Assembly: GCA_043228905.1 (NCBI GenBank)
Contig: JBHGNT010000012.1
Span: 11,904,001-11,968,000 of the forward strand
Reading direction: 5' to 3'
DNA length: 64,000 bases
Source: Azolla caroliniana
Taxonomy: Eukaryota; Plantae; Polypodiophyta
Each line of letters starts with the position of its first letter. The stretch's first letter is position 1. A model generated the notes under the pieces. It saw only the letters and a list, made by a program, of their open reading frames with translations, did no database searches and was not told where the DNA came from. Shown one piece after another: positions 15,207 to 51,402 of this stretch. A program made the position numbers and the translations under genes.

Positions 15207-16235
15207 TGTCATGGCGTGGCTCGCCTAGAAGCGTACCGTTGCGTAGACAAAAGATATCGTGAAAGTGAGGAAGGAATCAATGGGATTATGGACGGAAGAG
15301 ACGAAAGAGTAGAGATAGAGTAAATAGAGATCAACAAGATATGACAAGATGGGATATAGAATGATATTTGAAGGAATGAAAGAAACTTATAATTATTTGA
15401 TGAATGAGTTACAAAATGATTGTGAACATCGTTGAACCTTCGAGCTTTGTCTCACAAGGTAATCACTCTTCTCTTTCTTGATGGTAGACCATAGTCTTCC
15501 CTTCAATCTCTCGATAAGTATAAGATTCGAACCGCCGCCCTTCTGTTGCGAGTTGAGGACCACCACCACCAAGCTAGTTGTTCTTTTTCTCTTTTAAGAA
15601 TACCTTTCTCTCTCTCTTTCTCTATTATAATATATCTTTCTCTAGATCCAATATAATCATTTCCATTTTATTTCTTGCCTCCCTTTGTCTATACTTCCTT
15701 CTCCTTTTATAGGGAAGAGATGGTTCTACATGTGGGCCATGTGGCGCACATGCAGAGAGGCTCTTGCATGTGTGCTATATGGTGCACATGTAGCACGTTT
15801 GATGGTTTAAACCATATAATACTTATTAAAATGAAAACAAGACATATACTTATATACATTATAAGTATAGGCTAAATGGTACGGTGTGAGTGCCATAAGG
15901 TTGAGGTTGTTTGTTCAAGTTCTCGTTTGCCCATGTAATTTTGTGCATGTATTATATTACATGGTCTAGACTATAAAATACTACTTCAAATCATATATTA
16001 TTTTGTAAATTATTAGTATAGGCTAAATGGTAACCTTTGAGTGTCATAAGTTAGGGTTTATTAGTTCAAGTCCTCTCTTGCCCATGTAATATAATAGATA
16101 TATATATTTTTGTATCTACATATAATGTATAATATTATCATAGTATGCTATTAACATTATAAAGGTTTATTTTATTTTCATTACGTATTTATCTTATTGT
16201 AGGCTTTTAGTGTGAAGCTTTCGTACTTCACGACA
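15207..16235 (-). repeat. 5' LTR of P (~1.03 kb)
   Basis: Adjacent to PBS; minus-strand TATA near 15706; ends in TTCACGACA as do the LTRs of M. Confidence 0.75.
15861..16085 (+). promoter_or_regulatory. Two tandem degenerate tRNA-Met(CAT)-like A-box/B-box modules in the P LTR
   Basis: A boxes TAGGCTAAATGG at 15868 and 16019; B boxes at 15912 and 16063 (44-nt offset); CAT at the anticodon position. Confidence 0.65.
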
Positions 16236-16542
16236 ACGCCCCCTCAAGCTCAAGTATGAGGCGTCCGACATCCGCTTTGACTTTCGTCGGTTTTGTGTGC
16301 TTCCGTCCAGCCTTTGGCTTTCTTCGTCATGGCAATCTCGGTTCCTCCCCCTAAAGCCGGTGACGAAGGCTTGTAGTGTGTGGGTGAAGGTCGACTACTT
16401 CCAGCCATCGTGGGTTACGAGCCGCTTCGGTGGAGCTCTTGGGCTCTTGTTCGGCTGCTCCCTTCATCGCGAAGGTATAGTGATGGGCCATATACTTGTT
16501 GTAGCCAAGCCGAGTGATGGGGTTCTTTGTTCTAGTTGAGCG

Positions 16543-17638
16543 TCAAAGTTTTTCGCTCGCCGGTGTGAGCGCCTTCTTTGCTCCGGGTGTCCGCATGATG
16601 GGTACACCGAACTCAGTGTCTAGTGAGGGAGCCGACACTTCCAAATCACTGTCGTTGGGGTGATCGACTTCGTATTCGGGCATCTTACCTTTGCCTTTGT
16701 CCAAGTTCGTACTTAGCCGCGACCAGCTTGGGTCGCGTGGGGGCTCTTGTGGCCCACTAGGCTTTTCCGTAATCGGACTTTCTTCGAATATGTGTTCGAA
16801 GCGATCTCCATCTTCTACCTCTTGTTTGATGGATTCCGGGTCGAGCGGAGTCGGAGTCGAAGTTGTCTCTGATGCATACCAGGATGCGGACTCGTCGAAG
16901 ACTACGTCTCGACTTACCCGAACTGCTCGGGTAGAAGGGTTGTAGCACTTGTATGCCTTCTTCTCGGATGAGTATCCTATGAGGATACATTCCTGCGACT
17001 TCGTGTTGGGCTTCTGTCGGCTTTCGTTCGGGATGCGTACATTTACAATGCTTCCGAACACCTTGAGGTGTGATAGGATCGGCTTCCTTCTGACGAGGAG
17101 CTCGTATGGAGTTAGATCATGCACTCCATTAGTGATGCATTGATTCATGAGATAGACGGCCGTGGATGCCGCATCGACCCAATAGAAGTTCGACATGTGC
17201 TTCTCATGCATCATGGTGCATGCTACCTCGAGTATTTGCCGATTCTTCCTTTCGGCTACTCCATTTTGTTGGGGTGTGTGTCGGCATGAGAATTCTCTAC
17301 AAATGCCTTCACTTTGGAGGTAGGAGGTGAATTCTTCAAAGAAGTACTCCTTGCCTCCATCCGATTGTAGGCATCGAATGTGCCGACCGGTTTCTTTTTC
17401 GACTTGGCCCTTGAGCTTTTGGAAGTGGGAGAGCACTTCGCTTTTCTTCCTCATCGGGTAGATCCACGCGTACCGTGAGTAGTCATCGATGAAGGTTAGG
17501 TAGTATAGGCATCCGTTGGCCGTCGGCATTTGAGCCGATCCCCATACATCTGAGTGTATGACGTCGAGCAGGCCTTTGCTTGCGGAGCTCTCCTTCGGGA
17601 ATGGGAGTCGATGTTGTTTGCCGAGTTGGCACGCTTCG
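16543..17638 (-). pseudogene. pol: Integrase of Copia C
   Basis: IHSDVWG, FIDDYSR, SDGGKEY, PQQNGVAERKNR motifs. Confidence 0.9.
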
Positions 17639-18660
17639 TATTAGAGACATGAACTAATGTAAGAATTAGATAAGGATAGAATATAGATAAATAGATAGAA
17701 AGGAGAGAGAGAAAGAAGGGTGCCGATCCCCCCGACCACCCCCAAGCGAAGGGATCGAGACGGACTCGAGCCTCGATCGGCCTCCCATGCCACCACCATG
17801 GCTTCGAGTTGTACCTGGTGCTAGCGCGCTCGCTAGAAGAGTTGACCCATCACAAGACAGAGTGTCGACGTAGTCAATAAGATGATCAAATGAGGGTAGC
17901 TAGGCCTCTTATTTATAGCGATACCCAAGGCCCCCAAGCAAGTTCACACTTGGCCTAATGGGTTGTCTCAATCCCGAGGATTAAAAGTAATCCTCCCCTT
18001 CTTTACACTCTCGTTTAACCCTCACACTTATCCATGTGTATAGAATACTACGGTAAATTCTCACCATGGGATATTATATGGTCATGCCTGTAACATACTC
18101 CCCCTCTTTAAAACATTGCACTCTTGTAATGCAAAGTTAGGTAAGTTAGTTCTGAGAGAATTTTCGCGTTCCCATGTGGCATCTTTTATTGATTTATCCA
18201 TCCATTTTATTTTAAATTATCAGATTTCTTTAGTACGTAATTTTTTTGTTTTAACATCGAGAATTCTTTCTGGTACATGTGGTTTAGAAGATAATTCTTC
18301 AAAAGTAACCAGAGTTTCAGTTGTAACTGTATTGTCGCCAAAACCTAGAAGTTCTTTTAGACGACTCACATGAAAAACTGGATGAATTTCAACACCATCG
18401 GGAAGAGCGAGACAATAGGCGGATGACCCAATGCGTTTGAGGATTGTAAAAGGTCCACAAAACCGTGGGGCTAACTTAGCGCACTTACCCTTAGACAATG
18501 TCTTAGAATTGTGAGGTACACGTAAAAATACCTTCTGTCCAGGGTTGAATACACGAGGTTGCCTATGATGGTCAGCATAAAAACGCGCTCTATCTTGAGC
18601 AGTTTTTATATTATCTCGTGCAATATGTGCAACATATCTTGCATATCTCGAAGAAAGTTT
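17639..18660 (-). mobile_element. Element N: 3' fragment of a chromovirus (LTR 17639-18095, PPT, chromodomain, IN C-terminus), related to F
   Basis: KLAPRFCGPF, IHPVFHVSRLK, KIKWMDKSIKDATWE; PPT at 18096-18110. Confidence 0.82.
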
Positions 18661-19423
18661 GTGATGTCGGGCTTGTTTTTGAGTGCGCCGTTAATGTAGC
18701 TCCAATACCCTTGGCCGACGAGGTATTGGGTCATCTTGTAGTCCCAAGATGAATAATTCCTCTGGTCTAGCTTTTCACTAGGGAGCGAGCTACCCATTTG
18801 TGTGTTCATGTTGATTAGTGTCTTCTCTTTTTGCTTTTCTTCCTCCGATCACGTATACGTGTTGCATAGCGGCACTACGGTAGTCGATAGCCGGATTTTG
18901 TCGTCGACGTCTCGAACACACAATCACGGAGTCGGGTGGGCTTAGTGGATTTTCTAAACCACACGCTCTGATTCCATGTTAAGAATTAGGTAAGTAATTA
19001 AGAAAGGGTTAATTAGTACCTAATTATGTGATAAGTTGATAAGCAGAAGATTAAGTGATATGTGTGTGTATGTGTGTGAGAGGAAGACAGAGAGAGAGGA
19101 AGTTAACACTTATGAAGAACATAAGCTGGGGGATGAGTAACTATATTAAATTAGCATTATCATCATTGAATACAAAAATACCCACAATGAGGTATATATA
19201 CATCTCATGTGCAAAGGTGCACATGTGTGAGTTGAATATAGGTACTAAGGTGTAAGTCCTATATTAAATGTACTTAGGAGTGGAGGATCTAGAATATCCC
19301 ACTTAAGTACAAGGTCCTATTAAGGTGTTATAGTCAACACTTCTAACTAGATTCTATCTAGGTAACCACAAAGTTACATGGTTGACTAACTAACTAAACT
19401 AAGTTGAGCTTGATCTCTCAGCA

Positions 19424-20600
19424 AAGTGGAACTGGTGTATGTTTCGACGAATCGGCAGGTGGCCAATATCTTCACCAAACCCCTCAGCTTAGACAAGTTG
19501 TGGCAATTTTCTGGTACACTGGGTGTGCAATACCTCGATATGCCAAACTTGAGGGGGAGGAATGAAAGGAGGAATGAGGAAGATGACCGAAAAGCCGAGT
19601 CGGAAACTGATTTCGATTTCGACCCGACTGAAGAAGTTGGAGTGCACGAGACGGTTGAAGAAGCCGAGACCAGATGTAGGGGGAGCCACCGGAACAGAGA
19701 GCCCAAGCTGAAGCTAACCAAAAAAGGGGGAGGCAAAGCCGGGAAGACCAAGACATGGACATGGTCCGATGTTGTGAAGGGACTGAAGATTGAGGACGAA
19801 TTGGAGATAGCCAATTCGGACAAGAGCTGGAACGAATCAGAGTTACCCAATTCGGAAGCGGTGCTTGATTCGGAGGAGCTAGATCAACTGAAGGCCGAAC
19901 GGACAAGGAGGCAGCGGAAGTCGACACAGACACGGAGGAACTGACGGGTGAAGACACACTGGAGTCGCAACATCGAAGGAGCTGAGAAGGGCATTTTGAG
20001 TAGTCAAGGCGACCGAGAAGGTCGAGGAGTGTGGAACCGAATGGGTTTAGGAAAGCAGAACCGGATCGCGAGCTAGGCAGGAGGATGCTAGGTGGAGCTG
20101 GAGGAGAGGACCATCTACCACAGACACATACACTGCAATTCGACCTCAAGTTGAGCTTGAGGGGGAATGTTGAGTGGACAAGCTCAACCGGATCTAAATC
20201 GGCTAAACAAGTCAGAGCCAGATCGGAGTCTGGAACAAAGAACCAGATTGGTTTCCAGATGGTATCCGGAACAAGGAGCCGGATCGGAGAGCCAGATCGG
20301 ATTGGAACCGGTTGGCCGTTAGAGGCCTACGAATCTAGCCAAGTATGTAGGCATATTTTTAGGAGTCAGTGTCAGTCGCTCATATGATCATTGAAGTACT
20401 TGTCAATACTTTTAAGGACTTGTATAAAAGTGCTCACTGAGCACATTGTATGTACAAAGCATTATTATTTTGAATTGAGTTTATGTTGTTCTGCTCTCTC
20501 TGTCTCTCCTGCTCTCTATCTCTGTGATTCAAGCTTCCATTAAACCTTGTCTCTGTTTTTTGTTGCTATCTGGATAAACCAATTTGTCAAAGCTTCTACA
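19424..20600 (+). mobile_element. Element D: 3' end of a Copia (RNase H end, Pol extension, 3' LTR ~20168-20600)
   Basis: QVANIFTKPL..NLRGR runs in frame into the extension; PPT 20156-20167; LTR start resembles those of E and G. Confidence 0.82.
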
Positions 20601-26938: not shown

Positions 26939-27158
26939 CTTTGGTTTCGACAGGCCGTGCAATGCACGACGTGCTTGAATCCGGGCCATTCAACGATTGA
27001 GTGCACAATGAGGTCGCACTATCCAATTTGTCACACAATGATCTCATGTGGAGTGACGACCGGTTCTGCGAACCGGCTTGCTTTCAGGATAACAATCGAC
27101 GCCGATACGAGGAACGCTTTCGACTAGTGGAGGATGTATATAGCGTGAGCACTACAAT

Positions 27159-27254: not shown

Positions 27255-29087
27255 ATGCGAATAATGGTCGATTCACGAATAACCAGAATTACGACAATAA
27301 CTAGCACTAACAAGACCATCGACACACGGAGGACAATCGACCTGGCAATCAACGGTTTCAGCCAAATGGGGATCAAAGAGACGAGTGACATCCTCGATTG
27401 CCACACCATTATAATCCTTGTCCATGGGACAAACCTACCCAGCAAAACCTGCCACCCCAAACAAAACGAAGGGAATCAAGTCAGATGACACCCATCATAT
27501 GTTACAATTGTCACAAACCAGGGTAATACGCAATCAATACCGAGAAAATGATCTAGGGAAGCCCCCAACCATCAATACGATCATGGTGGAGGTTTAGCAA
27601 GTCACCACCCATATCAAAACAAACCAATCTGATTGGGAAGTTCAGGACGAGATCCGTAAAGTGGCAAAGGTATGGATAGAGAATACCAATAGCGCTAATG
27701 TGGAACGCATGTAGAATGAGATGCTGAATATCAAACTTGGCAACACAACGTGCCGAAACAACTTGGAATAGTCGACAAATCACTCAGGGACGATCCGATC
27801 TGGCAAGCCTTGGCCAACTGCCAAATTTCGATGCCACTCAACCAATTGCTGAATCGTGTTCCCTGATTCAAAGAAATTGTAGCGGCAATGGCTTGTGAAA
27901 AGAACGGTCAAGCGTGCCGATTCATCTTGTTGAATTGAGCGATGGACCAACAGTGATGGATGCACAGAGCCCAACCATAAAGCTCTAAGTCAAAGAATAG
28001 GAAATCTGAGATTGTATAATCCATGGTGGCTCGGGAAGTACATCTGACCAACTCGGGATTACTCAATGGGAAGCCTCCCATTCTAACTAAGGATAGCAGA
28101 CACCCTATTATGTACACATAACGTAGGTGAGGGTAGGTCACTAATATTTACATAAGTGAAGGGTATATTCACTAATGTTAAAAAGGGGACTAATGTGATT
28201 AGATAGGAGTGATAGGTGCATGCACTATCATGATTTGGACAACCAATGAATGGAGAGCCTTTTAAAAAGGCACATCTATTCAAGGAGCCTGGGAAGAGGT
28301 ATAAATATGAGGCTTAGCTACCCTCATAAGCACATCATGTTAGAAGGTTGTTGTCTTAGACGCCGGTGGTGCGGGCTAGGCCTTCGTCTCAACGACCATG
28401 TTTATCTCTTCCAAGGTATTAGTCATCCTAATATCTGGTTGTATGGGAGGTCGGTGGTAGGTTGGCTATGTCTAGATCATAGCTCTGGGGTGGTCGGGTG
28501 GAATGTGTTCTTCTATCCAATCTATTTTCTTTATTTTTACTTTATTTTGGTCTATTGATTAGTAATAGACTCTTAACAGTGGTATTAGAGCATTTACTAA
28601 CAACTTTTTTTTGTTGTTTTGATGTTTTTGCGTGTGAGCGATGGGGATCTAACAAGGCTTGTCATGCTCTTCACAGGATCAAAACAACATTCTTAACCCG
28701 GTATTCTTCTTTCTCAATCTCTCTCTCCTTTCTATGATGCATTCTTCTTGGTCGAATCAAATTTGTATTACGTTTTCTTTTCTTTCTTTCTTCGTTCTAC
28801 CATGCTATGATTTTAATTATTATTGTGCATTGGGCCGAGCGTGTTTGCACTAATCGCACACGCTCAACCCAAGGCTCTTTTGCATATTGTGATGTATCTC
28901 CCACTCTCCCCTCTCTTGAGCCATCTCTGTCACAAACACAGCAAGTGCGGACTAGGACGAAACACAGATGATGAGAATAAGAGCGACGGATGAACTTGGA
29001 GCTAGATGTGACAAGGCTAGGAACTCTAGACGTTGTGAGCGACATGAGGGCATGAAGGTAGAAATAAAGATCAAGGAGACGAAGATG

Positions 29088-29127
29088 TGTAAACGTAAGT
29101 GTTTCCGGAAGCGTAAAACAGAGAACA

Positions 29128-29175
<48 letters not shown>

Positions 29176-32100
29176 AGAGAGCAGAACACAATTTCAAAAT
29201 TATATCAAGACTCTGTGTTTACACACTGTGCTAAGTAGCACTATTTATACAAGTCCTCTTGGGACTGACAGAAGTACCATGTACTTCAATGCTCACACGA
29301 GCATCTGACACTTACTACGAGACTATAGATACCTAACAGTCTATCCTATTCTAGGCTTCCGATTGGACTGCCGGTTACGGATTCCACCCGGCCTCCACTG
29401 CTTGCCGGTTCGGTTGCTCACCGTCATACCGATCCGTTTCGCCCGATCCGTCTCGCTTACCGGCTCCGGTTGAGCTTGCCGCTCAACACTCCCCCTCAAG
29501 CTCAACCTGAGGTGGGGTCGTAGTGTCGACCTCTGTGGCAGTCGGTTCTTTCAACCAACTTCTCCTGGCATCACTCCGCCTTGCTCGCACTCCTCGTCCG
29601 GTTCGGTCCCGTTTGCCGCGACCCCTTTGGTTCTGTACGCCTCGACCCTCTCGGTCGGCATGTATGCTCAATAGGCCCATCTCAACACTCACGTTGTTGT
29701 GACTCCGGCGCTTGCCGATCCGTTGGTTTTCCCACGATGGCATCGACTTCCGCTGTGTCCGTGTCCCCTTGGCCTTCAATCGATCCGACTCATCCGGGTC
29801 CATCTGTTGATCCGAGTCAGCTGTCTCCGACTCGTTCCAGCTCTTGTCCGAATCGGTACACTCCGATTCGACTTCCGGCTTCAGGCCTCTCACCACATCG
29901 GACCACTTCTGAGTCTTGGCCTTCTCCATGCTTCCCTCGGCTTCTTCAGCCGGTGAACCGAAATCGAATTCCTCATTCGACTCCGCATCATGCAGCATGC
30001 ACTTCTCTTCCTGAGTGCACAACTCTTCTTCACAGCCACTTGCTCCGACTTGTTCGGATGTGCCGACTTCCTTCGTCGACCCGGCTTCCTTCATCTTCTT
30101 GTCTCCTCTTCTTCTGGCTCTCCTCTTACCGACGGGTTCAACAGGTTTTTTTGTCTTTGCCAGTTTCGGTAGAGACTTTGCCCTTGCTTCTCCCCCTCAA
30201 GTGCGGCACGTCGAGATGCTGAATACCAAGCATGTCAGTAAAGTGCTGCAACTTGTCCGATCTGAGCGGCTTGGTGAAGATGTCTGCAACTTGCCGATCC
30301 GTATGAACATACCGTAGGTCAACTTCACCGCTCAGGACCTGCTCACGCACGAAGTGGTAGTGCACCTTGATGTGCTTTGTGCGAGCATGGAACACAGGGT
30401 TCCTGGCGAGCTGCAGGCTGCTCATGTTATCGCAGTAAATCGGGATCGGGGTCGGTACCTCGATCCGCAAGTCTCGCAGCAGTCGCCGAAGCCAGATAGC
30501 TTCACAAGTGGCTACGGTGGCGGCCCAGTACTCAGCCTCAGTGCTTGACAAAGCCACTGTGGGTTGCTTCTTACTACTCCACGCAACGGTCGCGCTACCT
30601 ATGGAGAACATGTATCCGGAAGTGGAGCGGCGATCAGACGCATCACCGGCCCAGTCAGCATCTGTGTAACCGACAAGCTCTTCGGGTATACCTCGCCGGA
30701 ATAGCAGACCCTGGTCCTTAGTGCCGCTGACATACCGTAATATTCGTTGCACGCATTGAAGGTGCTCCACGGTCGGCTTCCGCATGAACTGACTTACCAT
30801 GCCGACCGGATAGCTGATGTCGGGTCGGGTGATGGTTAAGTAGATCAGGCTTCCGACAACTTGTCGGAACCGTTTCTCATTGCAGGCCGGTCCGGAGTTG
30901 GGACGGAGCTTCTGCTTCCGGTCTAGGGGTGTGGAGAAGGGTCGGCAATCCGTCATGCCGAACTTATACAACATATTCAACACGTAATGTCGTTGTGAGA
31001 GCAATATGCCGTCGGGGGTCCGGATCACTTCGATCCCAAGAAAATAATGAAGGTCCCCTAGGTCCTTCATTTCGAATGCGTCCGACAACTGGGACTTGAC
31101 GCGGTTGATTTCGGGAAGACCTGGTCCGGTGATGACTAAATCATCCACATACAAGAGTATACATACCGGACCGTCAGAGCCTTGCCGGATGAATAACGAA
31201 GAGTCCGACTTAGAGACAGCAAACCCCAGCTTACGCAATCGGTGCGTGATCTTCGTGTTCCAAGCTCGGGGGGCTTGCTTCAAGCCGTAAAGCTACTTCT
31301 TCAGTCGGCATACCGCCGACTTGTTCATCTCCGAGTGAAATCCGGGGGGTTGAGTCATAAAGACTTCTTCTTCAAGCTCTCCTTGAAGGAAGGCGTTCTT
31401 CACATCCATCTGGTGAAGATGCCACCCCCTTGCCGCAGCAACCGCCAGTACCACACGAACCGTCCTCATCCTCGCCACAGGAGCGAAGGTCTCATCGTAG
31501 TCGATTCTGTGGGTCTGCGCGTATCCCTTCGCCACTTACCGGGCTTTGTACCGGTTAACAGAACCGTCGGCGTTGTACTTGACCTTGTACACCCACTTGC
31601 ATCCGATCGGTTTACAGTGACGGGGAGGATCAACAAGGTCCCAAGTTTCGTTGGCATCGAGTGCCCGCATTTCTTCGTCCATAGCGGCACGCCAATTCGC
31701 GTCCTTTGCCGCTTCTGCGTAGCTCTCCGGCTCACGCACTTCTGTCACCTTAGTCATGTACGCATAATGATGCGCCATGTATTCATTGTACCCGTACCGC
31801 ACGACGGGATCCTTCTGACGGGTTGATCGACGCAACGCACCGTCACCTGATTTGAGGCCCTTCTTGGCCAGTTCGGTCTTCGTTGCCGAAGATCCGCCTT
31901 TCTCCTTTCCGGAGTCGGATACGCACCGATCCGACTCATCGTTGCCGGTTTCGAATTCCGGCATCTTCCTCTTCCCCTTCTCTTTGCGCGTGAACCGTTT
32001 CCTCGGTTCCTTGCGCGGGGAGAGCACAACAGAGTCTCCACCACTTGCTGTCTCTTCATCCGACTGGTCCAACCGACTCAGTCGCTCGTTCGGTCCACTC

Positions 32101-34636
32101 AACCGTAACAATTCCGGACTCTCATCTTGAGTCCCGGCTTCATCATCCTCTGCCAGGGCTGATTCAGGCTCACTGGCCTGATCTTCCGGCATTGGGTTGG
32201 GATCGGATGTCGGAGTCGGTATGGAGTACCAGGATGCCGATTCGTCGAACTCGACATCCCGGCTAACTCGGACTTCCTTCGTCCGGGGGTTATAGCACTT
32301 ATACCCCTTTTGCTCTTCAGCATAGCCGACTAGGATGCATTTTTCCGATTTTGCATCCAGCTTTCTCCGCTTCTGATCCGGCACATGCACATACGCTATG
32401 CTGCCGAATATCCGAAGGTGTCTCAAGTTCGGCTTGCGCCCGAAATACAGCTCATGAGCTGACACCTTGTCACCAATGCGGTTTTGTATGTAGACGGCCC
32501 TCTGGACCGCCTCCGCCCAGTAGAACCGGGGCATGCTCTTTTCCTCCAGCATTGCCCTTGCCGCTTCGACGAGTGTCTGGTTCTTCCTTTCGGCCACACC
32601 GTTTTGCTCCGGTGTGTATCTGCAGCTGAACTCTCGCCGAAATCCCTTCTGTTGCAGATAACTAGTGAATTGGCCAGAAAAATATTCCTTTCCGCCATCC
32701 GATCGAAGGCATTTGATCTTCCTCTCCGATTCCCGTTCCACCATCTTCTGGAGGCTCCGGAAACAGTCGAAGACTTCGCTCTTCTGTTCAATGAGGTAGA
32801 TCCAAGTATGTCGAGTATGGTCGTCGATGAAGGAGACGAAGTATCTGCTCCCGCCAAGGCTTACACTTTGTGCCGGTCCCCACACATCCGAATGGATGAG
32901 ATTGAGCTTGTTACAGCTCCAGTTCCGTTCGGTGGGGAATGGAAGCCGGTGTTGCTTCCCAAGTTGGCAGGCTTCACAAATTTCGGCTCTCCGGCCGCTG
33001 AACTTCGGCAAACCGAAAACGACTTGTTTCGTTTGCAGGTCTTGAAGCCTCCGGTAGTTGATGTGGCCTATCCGCTTGTGCCACAGGTCGATGTCCGACT
33101 CGACCTTCTGTCGTTCCGCGAACAGAGCGGTGCCTAAGTCATTGGTGTTGAGGATAAACATCCTCCCGTCTCTGCGCCCTTGCGCAATGACTTCGCCCCC
33201 ATCCTCAATGAAGCACCCGAGGTGTGTAAACCGTACCTGCATCCCCTGGTCGACAATCTGACCGACGGACACCAGGTTCTTCGTGATTGTCGGAACGTGT
33301 AATACGTTCATCAGCTTCCCTTTCTGTCCGACGTGGCTTAGAGGGACTTCTCCGAAGTGCACGATTGGGTGAGGAGTGTCGTCTCCGGTTTCGACTACTC
33401 CTGGTTGATCCGGTTTCTCCAGAAAGGAGAACCACTCTTTGTGGCTCGTCATGTGGTTCGATGCGCCGGAATCAACATACCACACTTCCTCCGTTTTGGA
33501 AGTGGTCTTCTTCATTAAGTTTGCCTTGTGATTCATCACCAAGGCTGGCCCCTTACCGGCCTTTCCGGTTCCGGATCCTCCTGATCCGTTTGCGTAGTGC
33601 GAGTTTTGCCGGCCATCCTTACCAGTCTTGCCGGATCCGGATTTGTCCGAATCAGCACGCTTTCTCCAACACTCACTTTCCTTGTGGCCTTTTTTGCCAC
33701 AGTACCAGCATTTTGTAGCAGATTTGTCTTGCCGGCCTCCGGCACCGCCTTGACTCCCTCGGCTTGTGGAAGTCCCGGAACTGCTGTCGGCACGCTCATA
33801 GTGCCTCCGTTCCTGCTCTTGCCGGCCGGCCGCCTCCATTGCGTGCCAACCCACCTCTTCCATCACGCCCACGGAACCGACCCGTTCCCGTGTACAGCAT
33901 TCGGTTGTCCGGGGATGCACTGGTATATGCACCGGCGTGGTTCTCCTCTATAAGAAGCATCGACTGTAAGTCGAAGAATGAGGGGGTATTCTCCCTTGTA
34001 CACACCGCAGTCCGGAACGCTCTGAACATGGACGCCAGGCCTCCGAGACATACCTGCACCATCTCATCTTCCTCTACGGTAACATTGAGAGAGGCGAGCG
34101 AGTCGCAGATCTCCTTTATCCGACCCATATAGTCTGCCACGGACATATTCTTCTGTCGAACATTGCTCAACTCATGTCTGAGTTGCAGCTTCCGGGCAGT
34201 GGTGCTTGCGGCGAAAACCTTTTTCAGGTTCCCCCAAGCATCCTTCGGTGTCTTGGCGTCACGGATGTGGCTGAGCAGCTGATCATCGACACTGGACGCG
34301 AAGCAGTACATCACCCTGCTTGCCGCCTGTTCCCATACCGGGAAGTCCTTGTGTGCCGAGTCTGGCGCCGCATCATTCGCTCCTTCGACATAACTCCAGT
34401 ACCCGTGTCCAAGAAGGTACTGGTGCATATTGTAAGACCAAGATGCGTAGTTGCTCCTGTCAAGCTTCTCCACCGGGAGCGACGTAGCCATGCCTCTATC
34501 CATGTCTTCTATTGTGTCTGTTTTCGACCTGTTAGGGTTTTCTTCTCAAGAGTAAATGTCTGCAGCAGAGGTTCTCAACCCTCGCGCTCTGATACCATGT
34601 AAATGTAAGTGTTTGCGGAAGCGTAAAACAGAGAAC

Positions 34637-34680
<44 letters not shown>

Positions 34681-35024
34681 GAGACAGAGAGAGCAGAATA
34701 CAATTTCAAAATTATATCAAGACTCTGTGTTTACACATTGTGCTAAGTAGCACTATTTATACAAGTCCTCTTGGGACTGACAGAAGTACCATGTACTTCA
34801 ATGCTCACACGAGCATCTGACACTTACTACGAGACTACAGATACCTAGCAGTCTATCCTATTCTAGGCTTCCGATTGGACTGCCGGTTACGGATTGCACC
34901 CGGCCTCCACTGCTTGCCGGTTCGGTTGCTCACCGTCATACCGATCCGTTTCGCCCGATCCGTCTCGCTTACCGGCTCCGGCTTATTCAACCGATCCGGC
35001 TCCGGTTGAGCTTGCCGCTCAACA
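29088..35024 (-). mobile_element. Element G: near-intact Copia, same group as E
   Basis: LTRs 29088-29488 and 34598-35024; TSD AGATG at 29083-29087 and 35025-35029; PBS 34586-34597; PPT 29489-29500. Confidence 0.96.
29483..34503 (-). pseudogene. gag-pol: gag-pol of G with C-terminal extension; a few stops and frameshifts
   Basis: ORFs 33796-34503, 31536-33932, 31293-31535, 30138-31283 and 29483-30094. Confidence 0.93.
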
Positions 35025-35300
35025 AGATGGAATGGAACAAGAATACTAGATTGATGTGTTAATGACTGGTGTTAAATCCCTTGAAAGGAACCAAGGAGGT
35101 TACCATTATTTATACAAGTTCTAAGATTGAATATCTCTAGAATATACCTAAGAAATATCTCTTGAATATACCCAACAAATATCTCTAGAATATACCCGTC
35201 TAGAATACACCATAGAATATTTCTATCTAATATACTAAAGGCTCTAGAATATTCTGGAATATACTATATGTTCGAATAAAAAACTTTTATACACAAGTAC

Positions 35301-35370
35301 ATGCTCATATCGAAATGGTTAGGCATGATGTCTTATAGATGTGAGGTTGTAGGTTCAATCCTCACTAACT
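35301..35370 (+). promoter_or_regulatory. Degenerate tRNA-like A-box/B-box module in the H LTR
   Basis: TATCGAAATGG at 35308; GGTTCAATCCT at 35352; TCTTATAG at the anticodon-loop position. Confidence 0.6.
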
Positions 35371-36212
35371 ACTGTTGCTTGGTGGCGCGGCCTAAGGACC
35401 GCACAGAACTTACCCACAACTAGGGAAGGTTTCGTCAATGTTTTTCAGAAACAATTCTTGTAGCCACCTTCTCAAACCAAACAAGCGCAAAACTTGCTCA
35501 CATTATCGAGCAAGCCATTTACCTCTCTCGAGGATTATGTGCATCATGCTCGGACCCAGATACAAAAATCGGGACTTACGGGTGAGAAATGGTTTGTCGC
35601 TTGATTTTTTTAATGGTATTCCGAATGGGGATTGCCATTCGATTGTCCATTCAAGGACCCCACAACTTTTGAGGAAGCCGTCAACATTGTACTTTGGTAC
35701 CATAGGACTTCCAAGAAAGGCGACAATAAACCTGAGTTCGCCAATACTCTGAATGTCAAGTTCATTGGGAAACGTAAGCAATTTAGTGAAACTTATGACT
35801 GCGACTCAAAGAAACCGAATCTCTTCTGTGCATATTGCAAGAAATAGGGCCACACAAAGGATACTTGTCGTCATCTTGAGAGGAAGTCAATGAACACCCC
35901 TCCACAAGAAAAATCTACGAGTCACACATGTGAGTATTTTGAGGTTATTGAAGTTCATACCAACCACTTAAGTTCATGTGAATGCACTTTTCCTTCCAAT
36001 TTACTTGGACTTAATAATGTACTCCGAGCAATCGGGTATATCAATTTTACACAAGTGTCATGAACACATGACCATTATGGCATCACTCGGACTTGCACCT
36101 CGAACCTTGTAATCCATAATTGAAAACCTCAATCATTAAGATAGCGTATTGTCATATGAGAGGATAAAAGCTACTTTTTGTATTGCATTGATTATTGTAA
36201 AAACTCTAGATC

Positions 36213-36262
36213 ATTCTAGAATGTTCTAGAATGTCCTAGAACATTCTAGAACATTATAGAAA
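36213..36262. promoter_or_regulatory. Heat-shock element array in the I LTR (also ~38205-38275 and ~44183-44240)
   Basis: About ten contiguous alternating nTTCn/nGAAn units just upstream of TATAAATA at 36287. Confidence 0.8.
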
Positions 36263-36494
36263 TCTCTAAGCTATTCTAGAGGAACTTATAAATAAGGGCA
36301 TGCATGTATTCTCAAATCAATTCGAATCAACACCTGTCTTTAGCTCTCATTACATATCTTGTTCCATTCTCTTTCTTTCTCTATCTTAATACACCCATTC
36401 TTCTCTTAGAATTTCATTCCTTTCTTCTCGTGTTCTCTTATATCCTTCTTCCATCACTCTATCTTTTATTCTTGGTTCTGACAATTTCGTTCGA

Positions 36495-36499
<5 letters not shown>

Positions 36500-36548
<49 letters not shown>
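36500..36548 (+). repeat. (CT)n microsatellite in the leader of I
   Basis: Seen directly. Confidence 0.95.
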
Positions 36549-36551
<3 letters not shown>

Positions 36552-36576
36552 CTCCTCTGTAATCGTCACAAAACCA

Positions 36577-37738
36577 TGGCTGCCATTAACTCAGAAGAAT
36601 ATCTCACCCTTGTTGCAGAAATGGAGAATCTTAGATCCAAGTTCGCATCTCTTGAAGTAGAGAATCAACGTCTACTTGGGGATTACAAAAGGTTACTATA
36701 GAGAAGTAGCAACAACGAGAGGAGTTCACGCGACGGGTTCAACGGTTAGAGTCGACAATCGTAGTGTTACAACAACAATGGGTCGAAGGTCAAGGACTTA
36801 TCAAGGTGCCCAAAATCAGCCTCCTAGCTAAATTTGATGGTTCGAGGGTGCATTTTCGAGGTTTCTTGAATCAAGTACGGTTGGTGATTCAAATGCATCC
36901 CGCACGTTATCCAACAGATGCATCACGAGTCGGGCTAGTGGGCACTTTATTGACTGGCATAGCGTTGTCGTGGTTTGCTCCATTGCTAGAGATCAATTCT
37001 CCTCTACTGAATAATTTCGAGGAATTTAACAAGGAATTTAAGGCTTGTTTCGGAGATACTGATGGGGCGAGAACAGCTATCAACAAGATTCGTACACTTC
37101 GTCAAGGTGATCAACCAGCTTCAACATATGCTGCCAATTTCCGTCTCATCGCAAGCGATATTCCTTGGGATGAACAAGCCCTAATGGAGCAATTCCGTTC
37201 AGGCCTTCGTAGTGATGTCAAAGACTTACTTCTTACCTTCCCCGAGGATCCAAGGTCACTTACAGAAGCTATTAGTCGAGCAATACGGTGTGATAATCGC
37301 CTTTTTGAGCGTCGATGTGAGCGACAACAACAAATAACAAGATCTAGATTCACACCAACTTATGCATCAGTAACAGCGCAATCATCCCCAAGGCAAATGT
37401 ATAGCCCTGCTCCAACTCCAAGGCAAACACGTAGTCCAGTCCCAATGGATAGTCCTACACCCATGGAGATCGATATGACTCAACGACGAGGACCGTTGTT
37501 AGACGAAGAGAAGCAACGTCGTCGAGCAAACCATCTGTGCTTATATTGTGGAGGTCCAGGACATATAGCCATTCATTGCTCCCGTAGGCCGAGACGTCAG
37601 GTAAATCAAATTCACTATGACAATAAAAATGAGTCCAACATTTTAGAAGTAGTTAGTGAATCTAATATTATGAATAATCCACCCTTGTCCAATAAGTTTG
37701 AAGTCCTAAGCCAATTAGAAGAGGAGTCAAACGAATAA
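36577..37738 (+). pseudogene. gag: gag of I (capsid and CCHC knuckle); 5' part frameshifted
   Basis: KFDGSRVHFRGFLNQV, PMEID, CLYCGGPGHIAIHC motifs. Confidence 0.9.
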
Positions 37739-38333
37739 GTCCGGCCAAAATAGGAGCCATTTGGTTGGACAACCCTAGATATGTACAACCTAGTGTGGGT
37801 TCCATTTCTTCCAAGCATGTTAGTAGTCTTCTCAGCCCTAGTACAAGTTAGGACACCTAGTTGTTAACTTCAAGTCCAAGCCCTCTTAGATACTGGAGCC
37901 AATTCTTGTTTCATGGATAGAGATTTTGCCCAAAAACACCAAATATCCTTGCATACACTTCCTTGTCCAGTTTCCGTAGTAGTGATTGATGGACGCCCCA
38001 TAGCTTCCGGGAAGATAACTGTCAGAACCAAGGATAAAAGATAGAGTGATGGAAGAAGGATAGAGAAGAATGGATGTATAAGATAGAGAAAGAAAGAGAA
38101 TGGATACAAGATATGTAATGAGAGCTAAAGACTGGTGTTGATTCGAATTGATTTGAGAATACATGTATGCGCTTATTTATAGGTTCCTATAGAATAGCTT
38201 AGAGATTTCTAGAATGTTCTAGAATGTTCTAGACCTAGAATGCTCTAGGACATTCTAGAACATTCTAGAATAATCTAGAGTTTTTACAATAATCAATGTA
38301 ATACAAGAAGTAGCTTTTATTGTTTCATATAAC

Positions 38334-38406
38334 AATAAGCTATCTTAATGGTTGAGGTTTTCAAGTATGAATTACAAGGTTCGAGGTTCAAGTCCGGGTG
38401 ACACCA
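38334..38406 (+). promoter_or_regulatory. tRNA-like A-box/B-box module in U3 of the I LTR (minus-strand copies at ~36078-36145 and ~44047-44115)
   Basis: TATCTTAATGG at 38341; GGTTCAAGTCC at 38385. Confidence 0.68.
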
Positions 38407-38412
38407 TAATGG

Positions 38413-41400
38413 TCATTTGTTCATGACACTATCCCTCCTTCGAGAACGCCGAGTGGAAGTCGGCGTTAACATTGTTGGGCCGGGCTTGTTTGGATAGTGA
38501 CAATGGAAGTCGTTGACCAGAGCTTCAGCATTACAAACGTTATCGATGGGTTCCCAAGTGCGATCACTCGGAGGATAACCAAGCCAATCAACTAGATAAA
38601 AAAGCTTATTGCGCACAATCTTAGAATCGAGAATAGCAGCTACCTCGTATTCGGGGCCGTCCACAAGTTGTATAGAAGGCGGTGGTGGCACGACACGATT
38701 AGGAATTAAAGAGGTGTGGCAAGGTTCCAAAAGAGAGCTATGAAAGACAGGGTGAAGCCGCATATGTGCAGGAAGGTTAAGACGAAGATGACAAAAGGAC
38801 CTAAGCGTTGATAGTCAAGCTTAGCACACGGTCGGGTAGTCTTGATGTGACGACGAAGCAACCATACACGGTCACCAACCTTAAACGGAGACTTAAGACG
38901 ATGTCGATCGGCATTGGTCTTATGGTGTGCTTGTGCTTTCTGAAGATGTGACGATAACTCGAACTGGATTTGTTGTAGTCGGTGGAGGTGATGCGCCGCA
39001 CTAGGGTTTCGTGACACCTCGGGAAGATCCAGTATACACCATCGAGGGTGGTTGCCGGTGTAGGCAAAGAAAGGTGTAACTTTGGTAGAAGAGTGGACCG
39101 TGTTGTTGTATGCAAACTCGGCAAGATGTAAAATTTTACTCCAATCATCTTGTTGATAACTAATGAAACATCGAAGATATTGCTCGAGCGTTTGATTTGT
39201 GCGCTCTATTTGTCCGTCAGTTTGTGGATGATAAGCCGAAGAGAGTTTGCAAGAGATTTTGAGGCCTGCCCATAGGTGCTTCCAAAAGTGTGAGATAAAT
39301 TGAGGACCTTGATCGCTAATAATATCATTCGGGAGACCATGATGGCGAAACACTTCACGCATAATGAGATCTGCAGTTTCTTCACTATTGATGGTCTTTA
39401 CACATGGTACAAAATGTGCCATCTTGGTGAACCGATCCACTACTGTTAAAATAGTATCAAAGCCTTTGGAAGGTGGCAGATCCGTAATGAAATCCATAGA
39501 AATAGACTGTCATGGCTTGTTGGGAGGGGGTAATGGTTGTAGTAAGCCATAAGGGTGATGCCGGGGTATTTTGGCGCGACAGCAGGTGTCACAAGTGCGA
39601 ACATAATCTTCGACAAATTTTTGCAAGTGAGGCCACCAAAATGAACGTTTCACCAGCTCAATGGTCTTGGAAATACCAAAATGTCCAGCCATGGGGGCAT
39701 CATGACAATGTTCCAACACTTGAAGTCGGGGTGATCCGTCGGGGACGTAAAGGAGATTCTTGTAGAAGAGTAAACCATCTTGCCACTTGAAGTCCTGATA
39801 ATGTTGAGATGACCCTGGCAATGTGGAGCAAGATGGACAACTTGAACCACAGTGGGCTAAGACATCCTTAGCAAAATCATCCGAATGAAGTTGTTGCCGA
39901 ATAGTGTCAAGAAGGGTAGAATCAAGTGGTGTGGCATAAATTGTTGTTACCTGTAGCTTTGATGGCCCAAGGAGAGTTTGCTTTTGATTGTCAAAGGCCG
40001 GATCTCCAGGTCGAAGGGCTAGATACGAACGCCGAGACAGAGCATCTGCTTTCCCTTGTTGTTTTCCGGGGCGAAAAATGATCTTGAAATCGAAACGCGT
40101 TAGAAATTGGGCCCACCGAGCTTGTCGTCTATTTAATACTCGAGCTGTTTGAAAATATGTGAGATTTTTGTGATCACTATAAATGATAATCTGATGAGGT
40201 GATCCTTCTAGAAAATGATGTCATTGCTCGAATGAGTCGACCACAGCTAGTAACTCCTTGTCATGCACCTCATAGTTTATCTCCGAAACAGTAAACTTTC
40301 TCGAGTGAAACGCGACTGGATGTATCTGCCCGTCCTCGCCTGGTTGCGATAGGATACTCCCCAATGCAAAGTCTGATGCATCCGCCTCAATAGTAAATGG
40401 CTTTTCAGGATCAATATGTGCTAGGATGGGTGCTGATGTGAATGCCTCTTTCAACTGCGTAAAAGCCTTGTCCGCTTCGATACTCCAAAAAAATGCTTGA
40501 CTTTTCTTGGTGAGTTGAGTAAGGGGCAACACAATGCTTGAATAATTATGTATGAATTTGCGATAGAAGTTCGCAAATCCGAGGAAACACTGGACATCCC
40601 GAACTGAGCATGGGGGTTTCCATTCCAATATTGTTTGGACTTTTGCCGGGTCCATGAAAACACCCTGGGATGAAATAGTGTATCCCAAAAATTCAACTTG
40701 TTTGCAATCAAAACTGCATTTCTCAAGTTTGGCGTAAAGACCATACTTCCTTAGGCGTTCAAGTACTTGCCGCACATGTATATCATGCTCCCCCTGTGTT
40801 TTAGAGTAAATCAATAGATCATCTAGGTAGATGATTAGAAAAATATCCAAGAAATCCCGGAAGATGTCATTTGCCATATGTTGGAATACGGCAGGTGCAT
40901 TTGTGAGCCCGAAAGGCATGACTGTATACTCAAAATGACCATACCGAGTACGAAACGCTGTTTTCCACTCATCTCCCGGCCGAATTCGAACAAGATTATA
41001 TGCACCCCTTAGATCAATTTTGGTAAAATGCTTTGCCCCACCAATGCGTTCTAAGAGATTGGAGATTAAAGGTAAAGCATACCTATTCCTTATGGTGACT
41101 TTATTTAAGCCTCGATAGTCCACAACCAAACGAAGGGAGCCGTCTTTTTTCTTCACAAAAAAGATAGGAGCACCAGCTGGAGACTTTGAATGTCGAATAA
41201 ACCCATGTGCAAGATTTTCCTCGATGTATTCTCGAAGAACCTCAAGCTCAGTAGGTGATAAATTGTAAATCGGACCCCACGGAGGCTCTTTACCTGGTTG
41301 GAGATCAATAGGACAGTCGTACGGCCGATGCTTTGGAAGAACACTAGCTTTGCCTTTGTCGAAAACATCAGCATAGTCTTGATATTTTTTGGGAATTTGG

Positions 41401-41424
41401 ATGTCTGAATTCCCTTGAGTGACA
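38413..41424 (-). pseudogene. pol: Inverted pol of I: RT, RNase H, integrase, chromodomain
   Basis: YLDD, EADASD, MDFITDLP, YEVAAILDS..YLVDWLGYPPSDRTWEP motifs. Confidence 0.93.
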
Positions 41425-43915
41425 GTAGGTCGAGACGTCAGGTAAATCAAATTCACTATGACAATAAAAATGAGTCCAACATTTTAGAAGCAGTTAATGA
41501 ATCTAATATTATGAATAATCCACCCTTGTCCAATAAGTTTGAAGTTTGAAGTCCTAACCCAATTAGAAGAGAAGTCAAACGAATAAGTACGACCAAAATA
41601 AGAGCGATTTGGTTGGACAACCCTAGATATGTACAACCTAGTGTGGGTTCCATTTCTTCCAAGCATATTAGTAGAGTCTTCTCAACCCAAGTACAAGTTA
41701 GGACACTGAGTTGTCAACTTCAAGTCCAAGCCCTCTTAGATATTGGAGCAAATTCTTGTTTCATGGATAGAGATTTTTCCCAAAAACACCAAATATCCTT
41801 GCATACACTTCCTTGTCTAGTTTCTGTAGTAGTGATTGATGGACGTCCCATAGCTTCCGGGAAGATATTCGAAGAGTCTAAGCCAATGCACATACTCTTA
41901 GGTGATTTAGGATGTGTAGTGTCCTTTAACATAATCCGTACACCTGAGCATCCAATTGTCCTCGGTTTGCCATGGTTCGAGCTACATAACCCTAGAATCG
42001 ATTGGAGGAAGCGAGAAATTTGGTTTCCTTCAGCAGAAAATATCATTGCCAAGGATCGAACTCAAGGTTATTCTCTTGAAGAATATAGTTCTACCAATGC
42101 ACCATCTCCTTTTCATCAAATTTCAGTCACATTGCAACAATGGCGCCAAGTGGGAGGCAAGGAGGACCTTTTCTTATTTGCAGTATCAGTGACACCTTCT
42201 GGTGCCACTCAAGGGAATTTAGACATCCAAATTCCCAAAAAATATCAAGACAATGTTGATGTTTTCGACAAAGTCAAAGGTCGTGTTCTTCCAAAGCATC
42301 GACCGTACGAGTGTCCTATTGATCTCCAACCAGGAAAAGAGCCATTGTGGGTTCCAATTTACAATTTATCACCCATTGAGCTTGAGGTTGTTTGAGAATA
42401 CATTGAGGAAAATCTTGCACATGGTTTTATTCGACATTCAAAGTCTCCAGGTGGTGCTCCTATCTTTTTTGTGAAGAAAAAGGACGGCTCCCTTCGTTTG
42501 TTCATGGACTATCGAGGCTTAAATAAAGTCACCATAAGGAATAGGTATGCTCTACCTTTAATCTCCAGTCTCTTAGAACACATTGGTGGGGCAAAGCATT
42601 TTACCAAAATTGATCTAAGGGGTGCATATAATCTTGTTTGAATTCGAACGGGAAATGAGTGAAAAACTGCATTTCGTACTCGATATGGTCATTTCGAGTA
42701 TATAGTCATGCCTTTCAGGCTCACAAATGCACCCGCAGTATTTCAACATATGGCAAATGACATTTTCCGGGATTTCTTGGATATATTTCTCATCATCTAC
42801 CTAGATGATCTATTGATTTACTCTAAAACACAGGAGGAGCATGATATACATGTGCAGAAAATACTTGAATGCCTAAGAAAGTATGGTCTTAATGCCAAAC
42901 TTGAGAAATGCAGTTTTGATTGCAAACATGTCAAAATTTTGGGATACACTATTTCATCCAAAGGTATTTTCATGGATCCAGCAAAAGTTCAAACAATATT
43001 GGAATGGAAACCCCCATGCTCAGTTCGGGATGTCTAGTGTTTCCCCATATTTGCGAACTTCTATCGCAAATTCATACGTAATTATTCAAGGATTGTGTTC
43101 CCCCTCACCCAACTCACCAAGAAAAATCAAGCATTTTTTTGGAGTATCGAAGCGGACAAGGCTTTTACTCAGCTAAAAGAGGCATTCACATCAGCGCCTA
43201 TCCTAACGCATATTGATCCCGAAAAGTTATTTACTATTGAGGTAGATGCGTCAGACTTCACATTGGGGAGTATCCTATCGCAACCAGGTGAAGACGGGCA
43301 GACTCATCCAGTCGCGTTTCATTAGAGAAAATTTATTGTTTCGGAGATAAACTATGAGGTGCATGACAAGGACTTACTAGCTGTGGTCAACTCATTCGAG
43401 CAATGGAGTCATTTTCTAGAAGGATCGCCTCATTAGATTATCATTTATAGTGATCACAAAAATCTCACATATTTTCAAATAGCTCAAGTATTAAAGAGAG
43501 GACAAGCTCAATGGGTCCAATTTCTAACGTGCTTCGATTTCAATATCATTTTTCACCCTGAAAAACAACAAGGGAAAGCAAATGCTTTGTCCCAACGTTC
43601 ATATCTAGCTCTTCGACCTGGTGATCTGGCCTTTGATAATCAAAAGCAGATTCTCCTCGGTCCATCAAAGCTACAGGCAACAACAATTTATGCCACGCCA
43701 CTTGATTCTAGCCTTCTTGTGACTATTCGGCAACAACTTCACTCTAATGATTTCGCTAAGGATGTCTTAGCCCACATTGGTTCAAGTCCTCCATCTTGCT
43801 CTTCTACAAGAATCTCCTTTACGTCCATGACGGATCACCCCAACTTCAAGTGTAAGAACATTGTCATGATGCCCCCATGGCTGGACATTTTGGTATTGCC
43901 AAGTCCATTAGCTGG
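41425..43915 (+). pseudogene. pol: Second forward copy of I: gag end, PR, RT, RNase H
   Basis: Duplicates 37583-38017, then overlaps in content with the inverted segment; many stops. Confidence 0.9.
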
Positions 43916-44371
43916 TGCAACACTCATACCAACCACTTAAGTTCATGTGAATGCACTTTTCCTTCACATTTACTTGGACTTAATGATTTACTCTGAGAAA
44001 TCGAGTATATCAATGGAACACAAGTGTCATGAACACATGACCATTATGGTGTCACCCGGACTTGAACCCCGAACCTTGTAATCCATAATTGAAAACCTCA
44101 ACCATTAAGATAGCTTATTGTCATATGAGAGCATAAAAGCTACTTTTTGTATTACATTGATTATTGTAAAAACTCTAGATCATTCTAGAATGTTCTAGAA
44201 TGTCCTAGAACATTCTAGACATTCTAGACATTCTAGAAATCTCTAAGCTATTATCTAAGGGCATACATGTATTCTCAAATAAATTCGAATCAACACTAGT
44301 CTTTAGCTCTCATTACATATCTTGTATCCATTCTCTTTCTTTCTCTATCTTAATACACCCATTCTTCTCTT

Positions 44372-51395: not shown

Positions 51396-51402
51396 AAAAT
51401 CC
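51337..51402 (-). promoter_or_regulatory. -1 ribosomal frameshift signal (G_GAU_UUU plus H-type pseudoknot)
   Basis: Slippery heptamer 51402-51396; UAG; 6-nt spacer; 8-bp stem; 6-bp loop pairing; -1 frame opens into ORF2. Confidence 0.75.

Follow-up and report, generated by a model that had tools for sequence, protein, structure and literature searches.

Why would retrotransposons that encode their own gag and pol proteins keep, in the unique 3' region (U3) of their long terminal repeats (LTRs), a tRNA-type promoter sequence that faces backward? The question is raised by a stretch of 64,000 nucleotides of Azolla caroliniana DNA (assembly GCA_043228905.1, contig JBHGNT010000012.1, positions 11,904,001 to 11,968,000 of the forward strand), referred to below as the window, in which three LTR retrotransposons named P, H, and I carry A-box/B-box pairs, the internal motifs of type-2 promoters of RNA polymerase III (Pol III). 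Comparison with related Ty3/gypsy chromoviruses indicates that, in the Tcn1-like lineage to which I belongs, the module is a promoter-like site under selection and is neither a one-off insertion of a short interspersed nuclear element (SINE) nor a tRNA. The module is probably a functional promoter element of the kind bound by TFIIIC; what this element does can be stated only more tentatively.

Modules in the window and in related loci

Six modules were located in the window, given here by position and by the strand of the module itself.

15861..15933, plus strand: P module 1 (A box 15868-15879, CAT 15894-15896, B box 15912-15921)
16012..16084, plus strand: P module 2, a tandem duplicate (A box 16019-16030, CAT 16045-16047, B box 16063-16072)
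35301..35373, plus strand: H module (A box 35308-35318, B box 35352-35361)
36078..36150, minus strand: I module of the 5' LTR (A box 36143-36133, B box 36099-36090; one change in each box)
38334..38406, plus strand: I module of the 3' LTR (A box 38341-38351, B box 38385-38394; 34 nt from the LTR tip)
44112-44059, minus strand: I module of the third LTR (A and B boxes at 44112/44068)

Every A/B-box pair of the original prediction was verified, on the plus strand at 15868/15912, 16019/16063, 35308/35352, and 38341/38385 and on the minus strand at 44112/44068 and 36143/36099, and the CAT triplet that had been placed at the anticodon does occupy tRNA positions 34-36 in both P modules. A strict scan returned 13 B boxes in the window, five of which have an A box 42-47 nt upstream, compared with a mean of 0.1 spaced pairs (maximum 1) in 20 block shuffles. 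The filter missed the copies at 15912 and 36099, each of which has a changed B box; in the former, P module 1, a T run follows shortly after the box. Box changes are present in three of the six modules. A scoring matrix was trained only on Tcn1-like loci outside the window, and the best score in 100 shuffled windows, 19.6 bits, served as its baseline. On this scale, the I copies score 42 (44112), 40, and 29 bits (36143) and the H module 37; with the same Tcn1-trained matrix, P module 1 is just above chance (20.0 bits) and P module 2 is within chance (11.6 bits). An nhmmer model recovered the H module at 14.2 bits against a shuffle maximum of 11.3 and did not find the P modules at 8 bits. Nine further LTR stretches of the window reach scores of zero at most and contain no module, and none is present in the LTR of a sister element of P at 47207-54181. 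A sense-oriented A/B-like pair was also noted in the R/U5 part of the P LTR (15524-15576, minus strand; 23 bits versus the shuffle best of 19.6), which may be a chance match in a GC-rich patch or a sense unit resembling that of the Helenus elements considered below.

Loci related to I were fetched independently of the module; the query was an alignment of 100 sequences covering the chromodomain end of pol, and the best 80 of 154 were retained. Sixty-eight of them belong to one assembly series and the remaining 12 to others; in five of the 68 the sequence stops short, which leaves 63 scorable loci. In the 420 nt after the chromodomain, 49 of these 63 relatives carry the module in antisense orientation at 25 bits or more, so in the chromovirus lineage it is not absent from most family members. 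The other 14 comprise six decayed or partial modules, four LTRs or possible LTRs without a module, and four matches with no LTR after them. The sense strand scores at most 2.7 in the loci of the series, and the distance from module to LTR tip is 11-63 nt across related loci. Hits in the 291 kb formed by the window and the loci fall in LTRs, in a linker of pol, or in true tRNAs; on scanning, no relatives were found in viral contigs. A tree was built from the fetched loci only (68 rows and 101 columns, two of 81 rows having been dropped for broken or short frames and identical ones merged) and has many open forks. The module is the mark of one Tcn1-like lineage, in which it is present on both sides of the deepest split if the root lies at the outgroup. 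In many carriers, the pol frame is open over all 930-945 codons available, and 18 of the 30 loci with at least 800 codons are open throughout, although the contigs may be collapsed repeats.

The I LTR was also followed in contigs of four runs; in X6, the summed depth is 35,000-53,000 over the module and 22,000-49,000 over the neighbouring U3; among 40 listed of 90 variants, two fall in the 55 nt from A box to B box, none of them in the boxes, and 14 in 106 nt of flank. As depth is not copy number, these figures are only a hint that the module is family-wide. One run had been guessed to be RNA; its contig, which spans all of U3 into unlike flanks, is probably DNA and has no bearing on expression; the run yielded no contig on P.

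Evidence for selection comes from the comparison of boxes with neutral sites. The 47 called modules form 20 families below 85% module identity (mean 57%), and the neighbouring coding region (19 of the 20 families) is 70% identical in protein and 40% identical at fourfold sites, which are close to saturation. Pairwise identity averages 0.77 over the B box and 0.62 over the A box, but 0.33-0.44 in the anticodon arm and 0.39-0.42 in the U3 flanks. In particular, the B-box core residues G53, T54, T55, C56, R57, and A58 are each present in 20 of 20 families. The A-box consensus of tRNA genes consists of T8, R9, G10, Y11, A14, G18, and G19, of which T8 is kept in 19 families, R9 and Y11 in 20, A14 in 19, G18 in 18, and G19 in 19. 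The word at 46-48, which was not used in calling, is likewise retained (G46 in 18, T47 in 20, and Y48 in 20 families) and corresponds to the GTC described, alongside the B-box consensus GTTCRAnYC, as the 5' signature of tRNA-internal B boxes (PMC3159450). The spacing from G18 to G53 is 35-36 nt in 38 of 39 distinct modules and 36 nt in the two true tRNA genes of one fetched locus, L027; calling admitted spacings of 32-39 nt at a small penalty, and only modules of 34-36 nt stayed in the set. At the sequence level, the A box, the B box, and the tRNA-like spacing of a type-2 Pol III promoter are thus all present. Moreover, when 50 distinct LTR starts, some of them decayed, are aligned without anchoring, the alignment peaks at 0.81 and 0.70 over the boxes, with 0.36-0.66 in the other bins of the first 200 nt, the tip excepted. 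Since boxes and spacing are conserved where fourfold sites and flanks are only about 40% identical, selection rather than a neutral relic is indicated, and decay of the boxes at the neutral rate is not what is seen in the chromovirus lineage.

The features that would make the module a tRNA, or a unit with a defined transcript, are not conserved alongside the boxes. ARAGORN found no tRNA gene in the window (0) and none in any module of 57 loci, of which only L027 has tRNA genes, and Rfam recognized no tRNA in the window or in three short stretches; the cloverleaf is therefore broken, as had been claimed. The modules form on average 2.35 of 4, 2.1 of 5, 2.8 of 4, and 3.1 of 7 stem pairs, and cross-family chimeras form 2.46, 1.86, 2.73, and 3.13, whereas the stems of the two true tRNA genes are fully paired (4, 5, 4, and 7). 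The first run of four T residues after the B box lies 1-909 nt away; it is within 20 nt in eight of 20 families, beyond 200 nt in seven, and absent in one. A folding z score below -2.2 was obtained for only five of 20 modules, which indicates no shared fold. Across 39 modules, there is no T-to-C change at positions 16, 47, 54, and 55 and no G-to-A change at 53, all of which wobble pairing in RNA would tolerate. Both P modules end in CCA at positions 71-73.

A further antisense pair lies outside the LTRs, in the linker between protease and reverse transcriptase in the pol of the subclade of I.

42053..42104, minus strand: second antisense A/B pair, protease-reverse transcriptase linker of the pol of I (13.6 bits)

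The pair recurs at the same place, with 13.8-21.5 bits, in five of the eight loci that hold the linker (L001 near 3006, L006 near 5047, L007 near 5011, L009 near 3284, and L012 near 2706); the linker of the other three (L020, L050, and L066) is shorter and has no pair. It is in frame, and the residues encoded by the boxes, R-T-Q and T, are fixed while their neighbours vary. Singly, these scores are weak and within shuffle range, and a codon test was underpowered, as 31 of 62 residue-identical columns are codon-identical anyway. As a lead, the linker pair would favour selection for such sites in general.

Carrier elements and their lineages

The modules listed above lie in LTRs of the following elements; the strand is now that of the element.

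15207..16235, minus strand: P 5' LTR, Phygy-like Ty3/gypsy (1029 bp; inverted termini; the flank ACGC fits NCGN)
28928..35372, minus strand: H, a Tcn1-like LTR in two pieces (28928-29087 and 35030 to about 35372)
36056..36483, plus strand: I 5' LTR, Tcn1-like chromovirus (428 bp; TATA at 36287, R start near 36319)
38020..38428, minus strand: I 3' LTR copy, preceded on the minus strand by the polypurine tract (PPT) and the chromodomain-coding end of pol
44025..44376, plus strand: third I LTR copy, truncated
47207-54181, minus strand: complete Phygy-like sister element of P (LTRs about 97% identical; target-site duplication (TSD) TCGT on both sides)

The landmarks of I, H, and P agree that the modules are placed in U3, antisense to the element and upstream of the TATA box, as the original prediction had it. 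That they point toward the outer LTR end holds for I and P and is unreadable in H, in which the outer tip, and with it the distance from module to tip, is missing.

In P, the TATA box lies near 15705-15711 on the minus strand, and the two modules are about 150 and 300 nt from the LTR tip. A primer-binding site (PBS), together with gag, follows the LTR downstream, toward lower coordinates, and pol lies beyond the window. The gag product is 83% identical to P0121, which has DUF4100, and the ACGC of the target site, present on one flank only, fits the 4-bp NCGN rule. The PBS is nearly identical to that of the sister element and is of the same type, putatively that of tRNA-Trp. The gag-protease of the sister is 46% identical to the homologue of that of P, and its 992-aa open reading frame contains reverse transcriptase, RNase H, and integrase but no chromodomain. 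The flank, the shared PBS, and the DUF4100 homologue are in keeping with the assignment of P as a non-chromovirus.

The H LTR is split by a Copia element (29088-35024, TSD AGATG). Its TATA box and R-start word are 41 nt apart on the minus strand, as in Tcn1-like loci, and H most likely belongs to the same lineage as I because its 37 bits fall within the leave-one-out range of 25.7-45.8 and the same TATA-to-R-start word is shared. Where the tip is missing, its place is taken directly by a word resembling a PBS and by a decayed gag that has a zinc knuckle (35373-35955, plus strand). Since a PBS-like word and a gag fragment follow, H was also considered as a plus-strand 5' LTR with a sense Helenus-like module; this was rejected, as the TATA box, the R-start word, and the pyrimidine-rich end are all on the minus strand.

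Element I encodes gag, protease, reverse transcriptase, RNase H, integrase, and a chromodomain. The latter, at the integrase end, is of class I, with the aromatic cage residues Y, W, and Y in the translation, and relatives carry PF00385. A degenerate self-priming site and then gag follow the 5' LTR; in 11 related loci, a complement of 10-12 nt to the R start stands just after the LTR, and this 12-nt complement fixes the R start of I near 36319. These traits agree with the claim that I is a chromovirus. Self-priming site and R start covary, with four variants of the 12-nt pair among L001, L006-L010, L012, L020, L029, and L036, and a similar complement can be seen by eye in SM-Tcn1 of Selaginella, though its paper found no priming mechanism. 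Between 35955 and 44376, element I is scrambled, with three LTR copies, of which the two on the plus strand have the same upstream flank, and 1.6 kb of pol duplicated in inverted orientation. Between module and TATA box, I, H, and many related LTRs have arrays of a near-palindromic 10-nt repeat (36186-36290, 38179-38299, 44155-44239, and 35130-35260), which are candidate transcription-factor sites; Rfam microRNA (miRNA) matches over these repeats were far below the cut-offs and were set aside. The surroundings form a field of nested LTR retrotransposons: among the 33 long frames of the window, 21 have Copia or Gypsy domains by Pfam and none has a host gene domain. Taken together, the Tcn1-like and Phygy-like elements are a combination suggestive of a seedless land plant. 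A young Copia insertion at 5960-10480 (plus strand) has an unbroken polyprotein frame of 1506 codons and LTRs that are 99% identical.

Rather than the three different LTR families that had been supposed, there are thus two lineages, the Tcn1-like one with H and I and the Phygy-like P. The proposed origin of the modules from a tRNA gene is supported, as the next-best hits of a model built from the modules include the two true tRNA genes of L027. These are intact Asn and Thr genes (552-627, plus strand, and 831-906, minus strand), which face each other within 400 nt of a chromovirus integrase end. Independent acquisition by each family, on the other hand, is not supported, as H matches I and P could have captured its module from the tip of a Tcn1-like LTR; separate derivation from a tRNA or SINE could also account for P. 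Because the sister element has no module, P would have gained it after the two split. The P and Tcn1 modules have similar words after the B box, and other P copies have canonical B-box letters where the window copies depart from them. No P-like LTR or gag occurs among the best 80 of the 154 loci.

Possible uses of the module

It is proposed that an ancestor of the Tcn1-like lineage took up a tRNA gene or the tRNA-derived head of a SINE. Selection would have acted on transposing copies, since inserted copies decay (three of the six in the window) while families keep their boxes, and the benefit would thus be the element's own. TFIIIC is predicted to bind the module because the kept residues are those of the internal promoter. 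Bound between the flank and the TATA box, TFIIIC and TFIIIB would keep the LTR edge open and block the spread of silencing, a barrier role that has been described for these factors in yeasts (PMC9540200, PMC13578239). Such a barrier would suit elements whose class I chromodomain is thought to aim at heterochromatin; the class I chromodomain of the fungal element MAGGY is reported to bind methylated lysine 9 of histone H3 (H3K9me) and to target heterochromatin (PMC3350952). The antisense orientation may persist because a unit in sense would initiate competing transcripts within the element. A similar module would have reached the Phygy-like P from a Tcn1-like LTR or separately. A role at the level of DNA is suggested because the residues read by TFIIIC are retained but not the stems, a fixed terminator, or a shared fold, and shielding of the Pol II promoter appears the likeliest use because the site lies between flank and TATA box in elements with an H3K9me-type chromodomain. 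Within the promoter-element reading, this barrier role is given slightly less than an even chance. The wider proposition, that coding plant retrotransposons of at least two Gypsy lineages carry a tRNA-gene-derived TFIIIC barrier of their own at the LTR tip, with a second site in pol, is more doubtful.

Several observations weigh against these proposals. A barrier needs no fixed orientation, yet all U3 modules are antisense. TFIIIC tolerates varied spacing between A and B boxes, and the strict 35-36 nt is not explained by a barrier. The linker pair in pol lies at no edge and is less in line with a barrier that works purely at edges. According to a 2026 review, TFIIIC barriers have not so far been described in plants. 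As regards the promoter itself, G10 of the A box is kept in only seven and C61 in 14 of 20 families, there is no enrichment of CAA upstream of the A box (5 of 20 versus a background of 0.19), and C71, kept in 17 of 20 families without a 5' acceptor strand, is a feature for which a pure promoter model does not account. Because boxes served to call the modules, some of the box conservation is inherent in the approach; this bias is limited, though not removed, by the high denominator, by the 46-48 word, and by the unanchored alignment. All 11 scorable outgroup loci (about six families on one supported branch) score below zero, and no module is visible by eye in the LTR of SM-Tcn1. In P, contig depth summed over the modules falls several- to twentyfold below that at the LTR tip, and some contigs skip or replace the module stretch.

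The selected output may instead be antisense Pol III transcription, with the RNA or the act of transcription tuning the expression or copy number of the element. Such a unit would extend back from the 3' LTR across the PPT to the integrase end; that of the 5' LTR would enter the flank, and that of the site in pol would cover protease and gag. The retention of both boxes rather than of the B box alone and the antisense orientation of every U3 module and of the pol site agree with this explanation, and U3 Pol III units are documented in foamy viruses (PMC3993851); it is nevertheless held to be unlikely, given the scattered terminators, of which fewer than half are near the B box, the lack of a conserved product or fold, and the absence of CAA enrichment. 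Slightly less probable still is capture of a host tRNA by the genomic RNA, through the complement of the D, variable, and T loops common to tRNAs that follows the PPT, in aid of packaging, dimer formation, or strand transfer, a part played in Ty3 by the 3' portion of the primer site. This would account for the fixed antisense orientation and for C71, and precedents are available: the U3 of Ty3 is reported to pair with the primer tRNA at its T and D arms (PMC5371799), and a sequence in HIV-1 U3/R that resembles a tRNA gene reportedly promotes minus-strand transfer. Sense modules also pair with two host tRNAs better than shuffles do (mean z -2.9 and -2.6), but this duplex signal follows from the shared boxes and does not discriminate between models. 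Moreover, the lineage is self-priming (a complement of 10-12 nt in 11 loci, with four covarying variants) and so lacks a primer tRNA that would need holding; the anticodon arm is unconstrained, exact matches to either host tRNA extend over 5-11 nt at most, and the wobble-tolerated changes are missing at five core positions.

TFIIIC on the cDNA end or on resident LTRs might also guide or tether copies, much as Pol III complexes direct Ty3 and TRE5-A. The module lies only 11-63 nt from the end bound by integrase, isolated B boxes are described as targets of TRE5-A (PMC3159450), and one chromovirus end is within 400 nt of two tRNA genes. However, this is a single locus, the only one with tRNA genes among 57 scanned, and the elements already carry a chromodomain; a use in integration or nuclear placement is therefore considered improbable. 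Least credible is the reading that an old SINE or tRNA insertion has left a neutral relic, or that AT-rich U3 DNA matches by chance. It would fit the lack of tRNA-model matches in ARAGORN and Rfam and the fact that P module 2 and the pol site are, singly, within shuffle range, but it is hard to reconcile with invariant boxes at fixed spacing in 20 families whose fourfold sites and flanks are about 40% identical, or with five spaced pairs in the window where 0.1 are expected. For the Tcn1-like lineage, the sequence comparisons indicate that a neutral relic is already contradicted.

Known systems and meaning of the finding

The closest counterparts are the Helenus elements, which are TRIMs (terminal-repeat retrotransposons in miniature), and TRIMp3 (Kojima 2024, PMC10886601), whose LTRs likewise contain a tRNA-derived sequence that has kept the A and B boxes and lost tRNA function. 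In the available text of that account, one plant family of Helenus is known, from Selaginella; insertion of a SINE or tRNA into the LTR is the proposed origin, and autonomous elements are expected to use Pol II and not to share such a sequence. It also states that "not a few LTRs" in Repbase hold a tRNA part, which is left unanalysed. Helenus elements are non-coding and 311-1263 bp long, and in the consensus LTRs examined, the tRNA part is in sense orientation in the 3' half, as fits a promoter of the element's own RNA. The present carriers are gag-pol elements with long open pol frames, and their module is antisense at the U3 tip, upstream of the TATA box; by size, coding capacity, and orientation, they do not belong to Helenus or TRIMp3. 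The Cassandra and Ajax TRIMs similarly have a long-conserved Pol III internal promoter in both LTRs, but it is of type 1, derived from 5S, the elements are non-autonomous, and the Cassandra promoter is described as driving its own transcript (PMC10886601).

With the tRNA-gene, extra TFIIIC (ETC), and chromosome-organizing clamp (COC) barriers of yeasts, at which TFIIIC-bound B boxes limit silencing (PMC9540200, PMC13578239, PMC3159450), the module shares the activity predicted for it. As far as these sources describe them, however, the yeast barriers are host loci that are not mobile, ETC sites need only a B box, and none is described in plants. Foamy viruses carry A/B-box units in U3 of a coding-competent element, as here, but these miRNA cassettes are reported to have hairpins, terminators, and defined miRNAs (PMC3993851), and the present modules have no conserved hairpin or terminator. 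The bipartite PBS of Ty3 (PMC5371799) and the tRNA-Lys3-like U3/R of HIV-1 are also U3 sequences of coding-competent elements related to the D and T arms. According to the accounts available, both serve the primer tRNA; the present lineage is self-priming and keeps only universal box residues. As to the host elements, I shares with Tcn1 chromoviruses the class I chromodomain, self-priming, and an LTR of about 430 bp, and P resembles Phygy non-chromoviruses in a flank that fits NCGN and in a PBS of probably matching type (PMC6317226, PMC2864245). The available portions of the same accounts do not mention tRNA-like LTR sequence, in keeping with SM-Tcn1, which by eye has no module. The earlier statement that no such arrangement was known is thus correct in part: the literature searched, which covered few subscription journals and Repbase reports, contains no description of coding LTR elements whose U3 tip carries a tRNA-type promoter in antisense orientation, but the precedents in Helenus, foamy-virus U3 units, and the Ty3 U3 had been overlooked.

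Pol III promoters in LTRs were previously known from small non-coding TRIMs, in which they drive the element, and were unexpected in autonomous elements. What is new is that a gag-pol lineage appears to keep a backward promoter beside its Pol II promoter under strong selection. Should the module act through tRNA capture or antisense RNA instead, it would represent a new step in the cycle of a self-priming element. If it is a barrier, an element of 60 bp would answer both how heterochromatin-targeting chromoviruses stay expressible and whether plants have TFIIIC barriers, and it would be a compact candidate insulator for plant transgenes. It would then be the first Pol III barrier in plants, and thousands of TFIIIC sites would be spread across the heterochromatin of the host.

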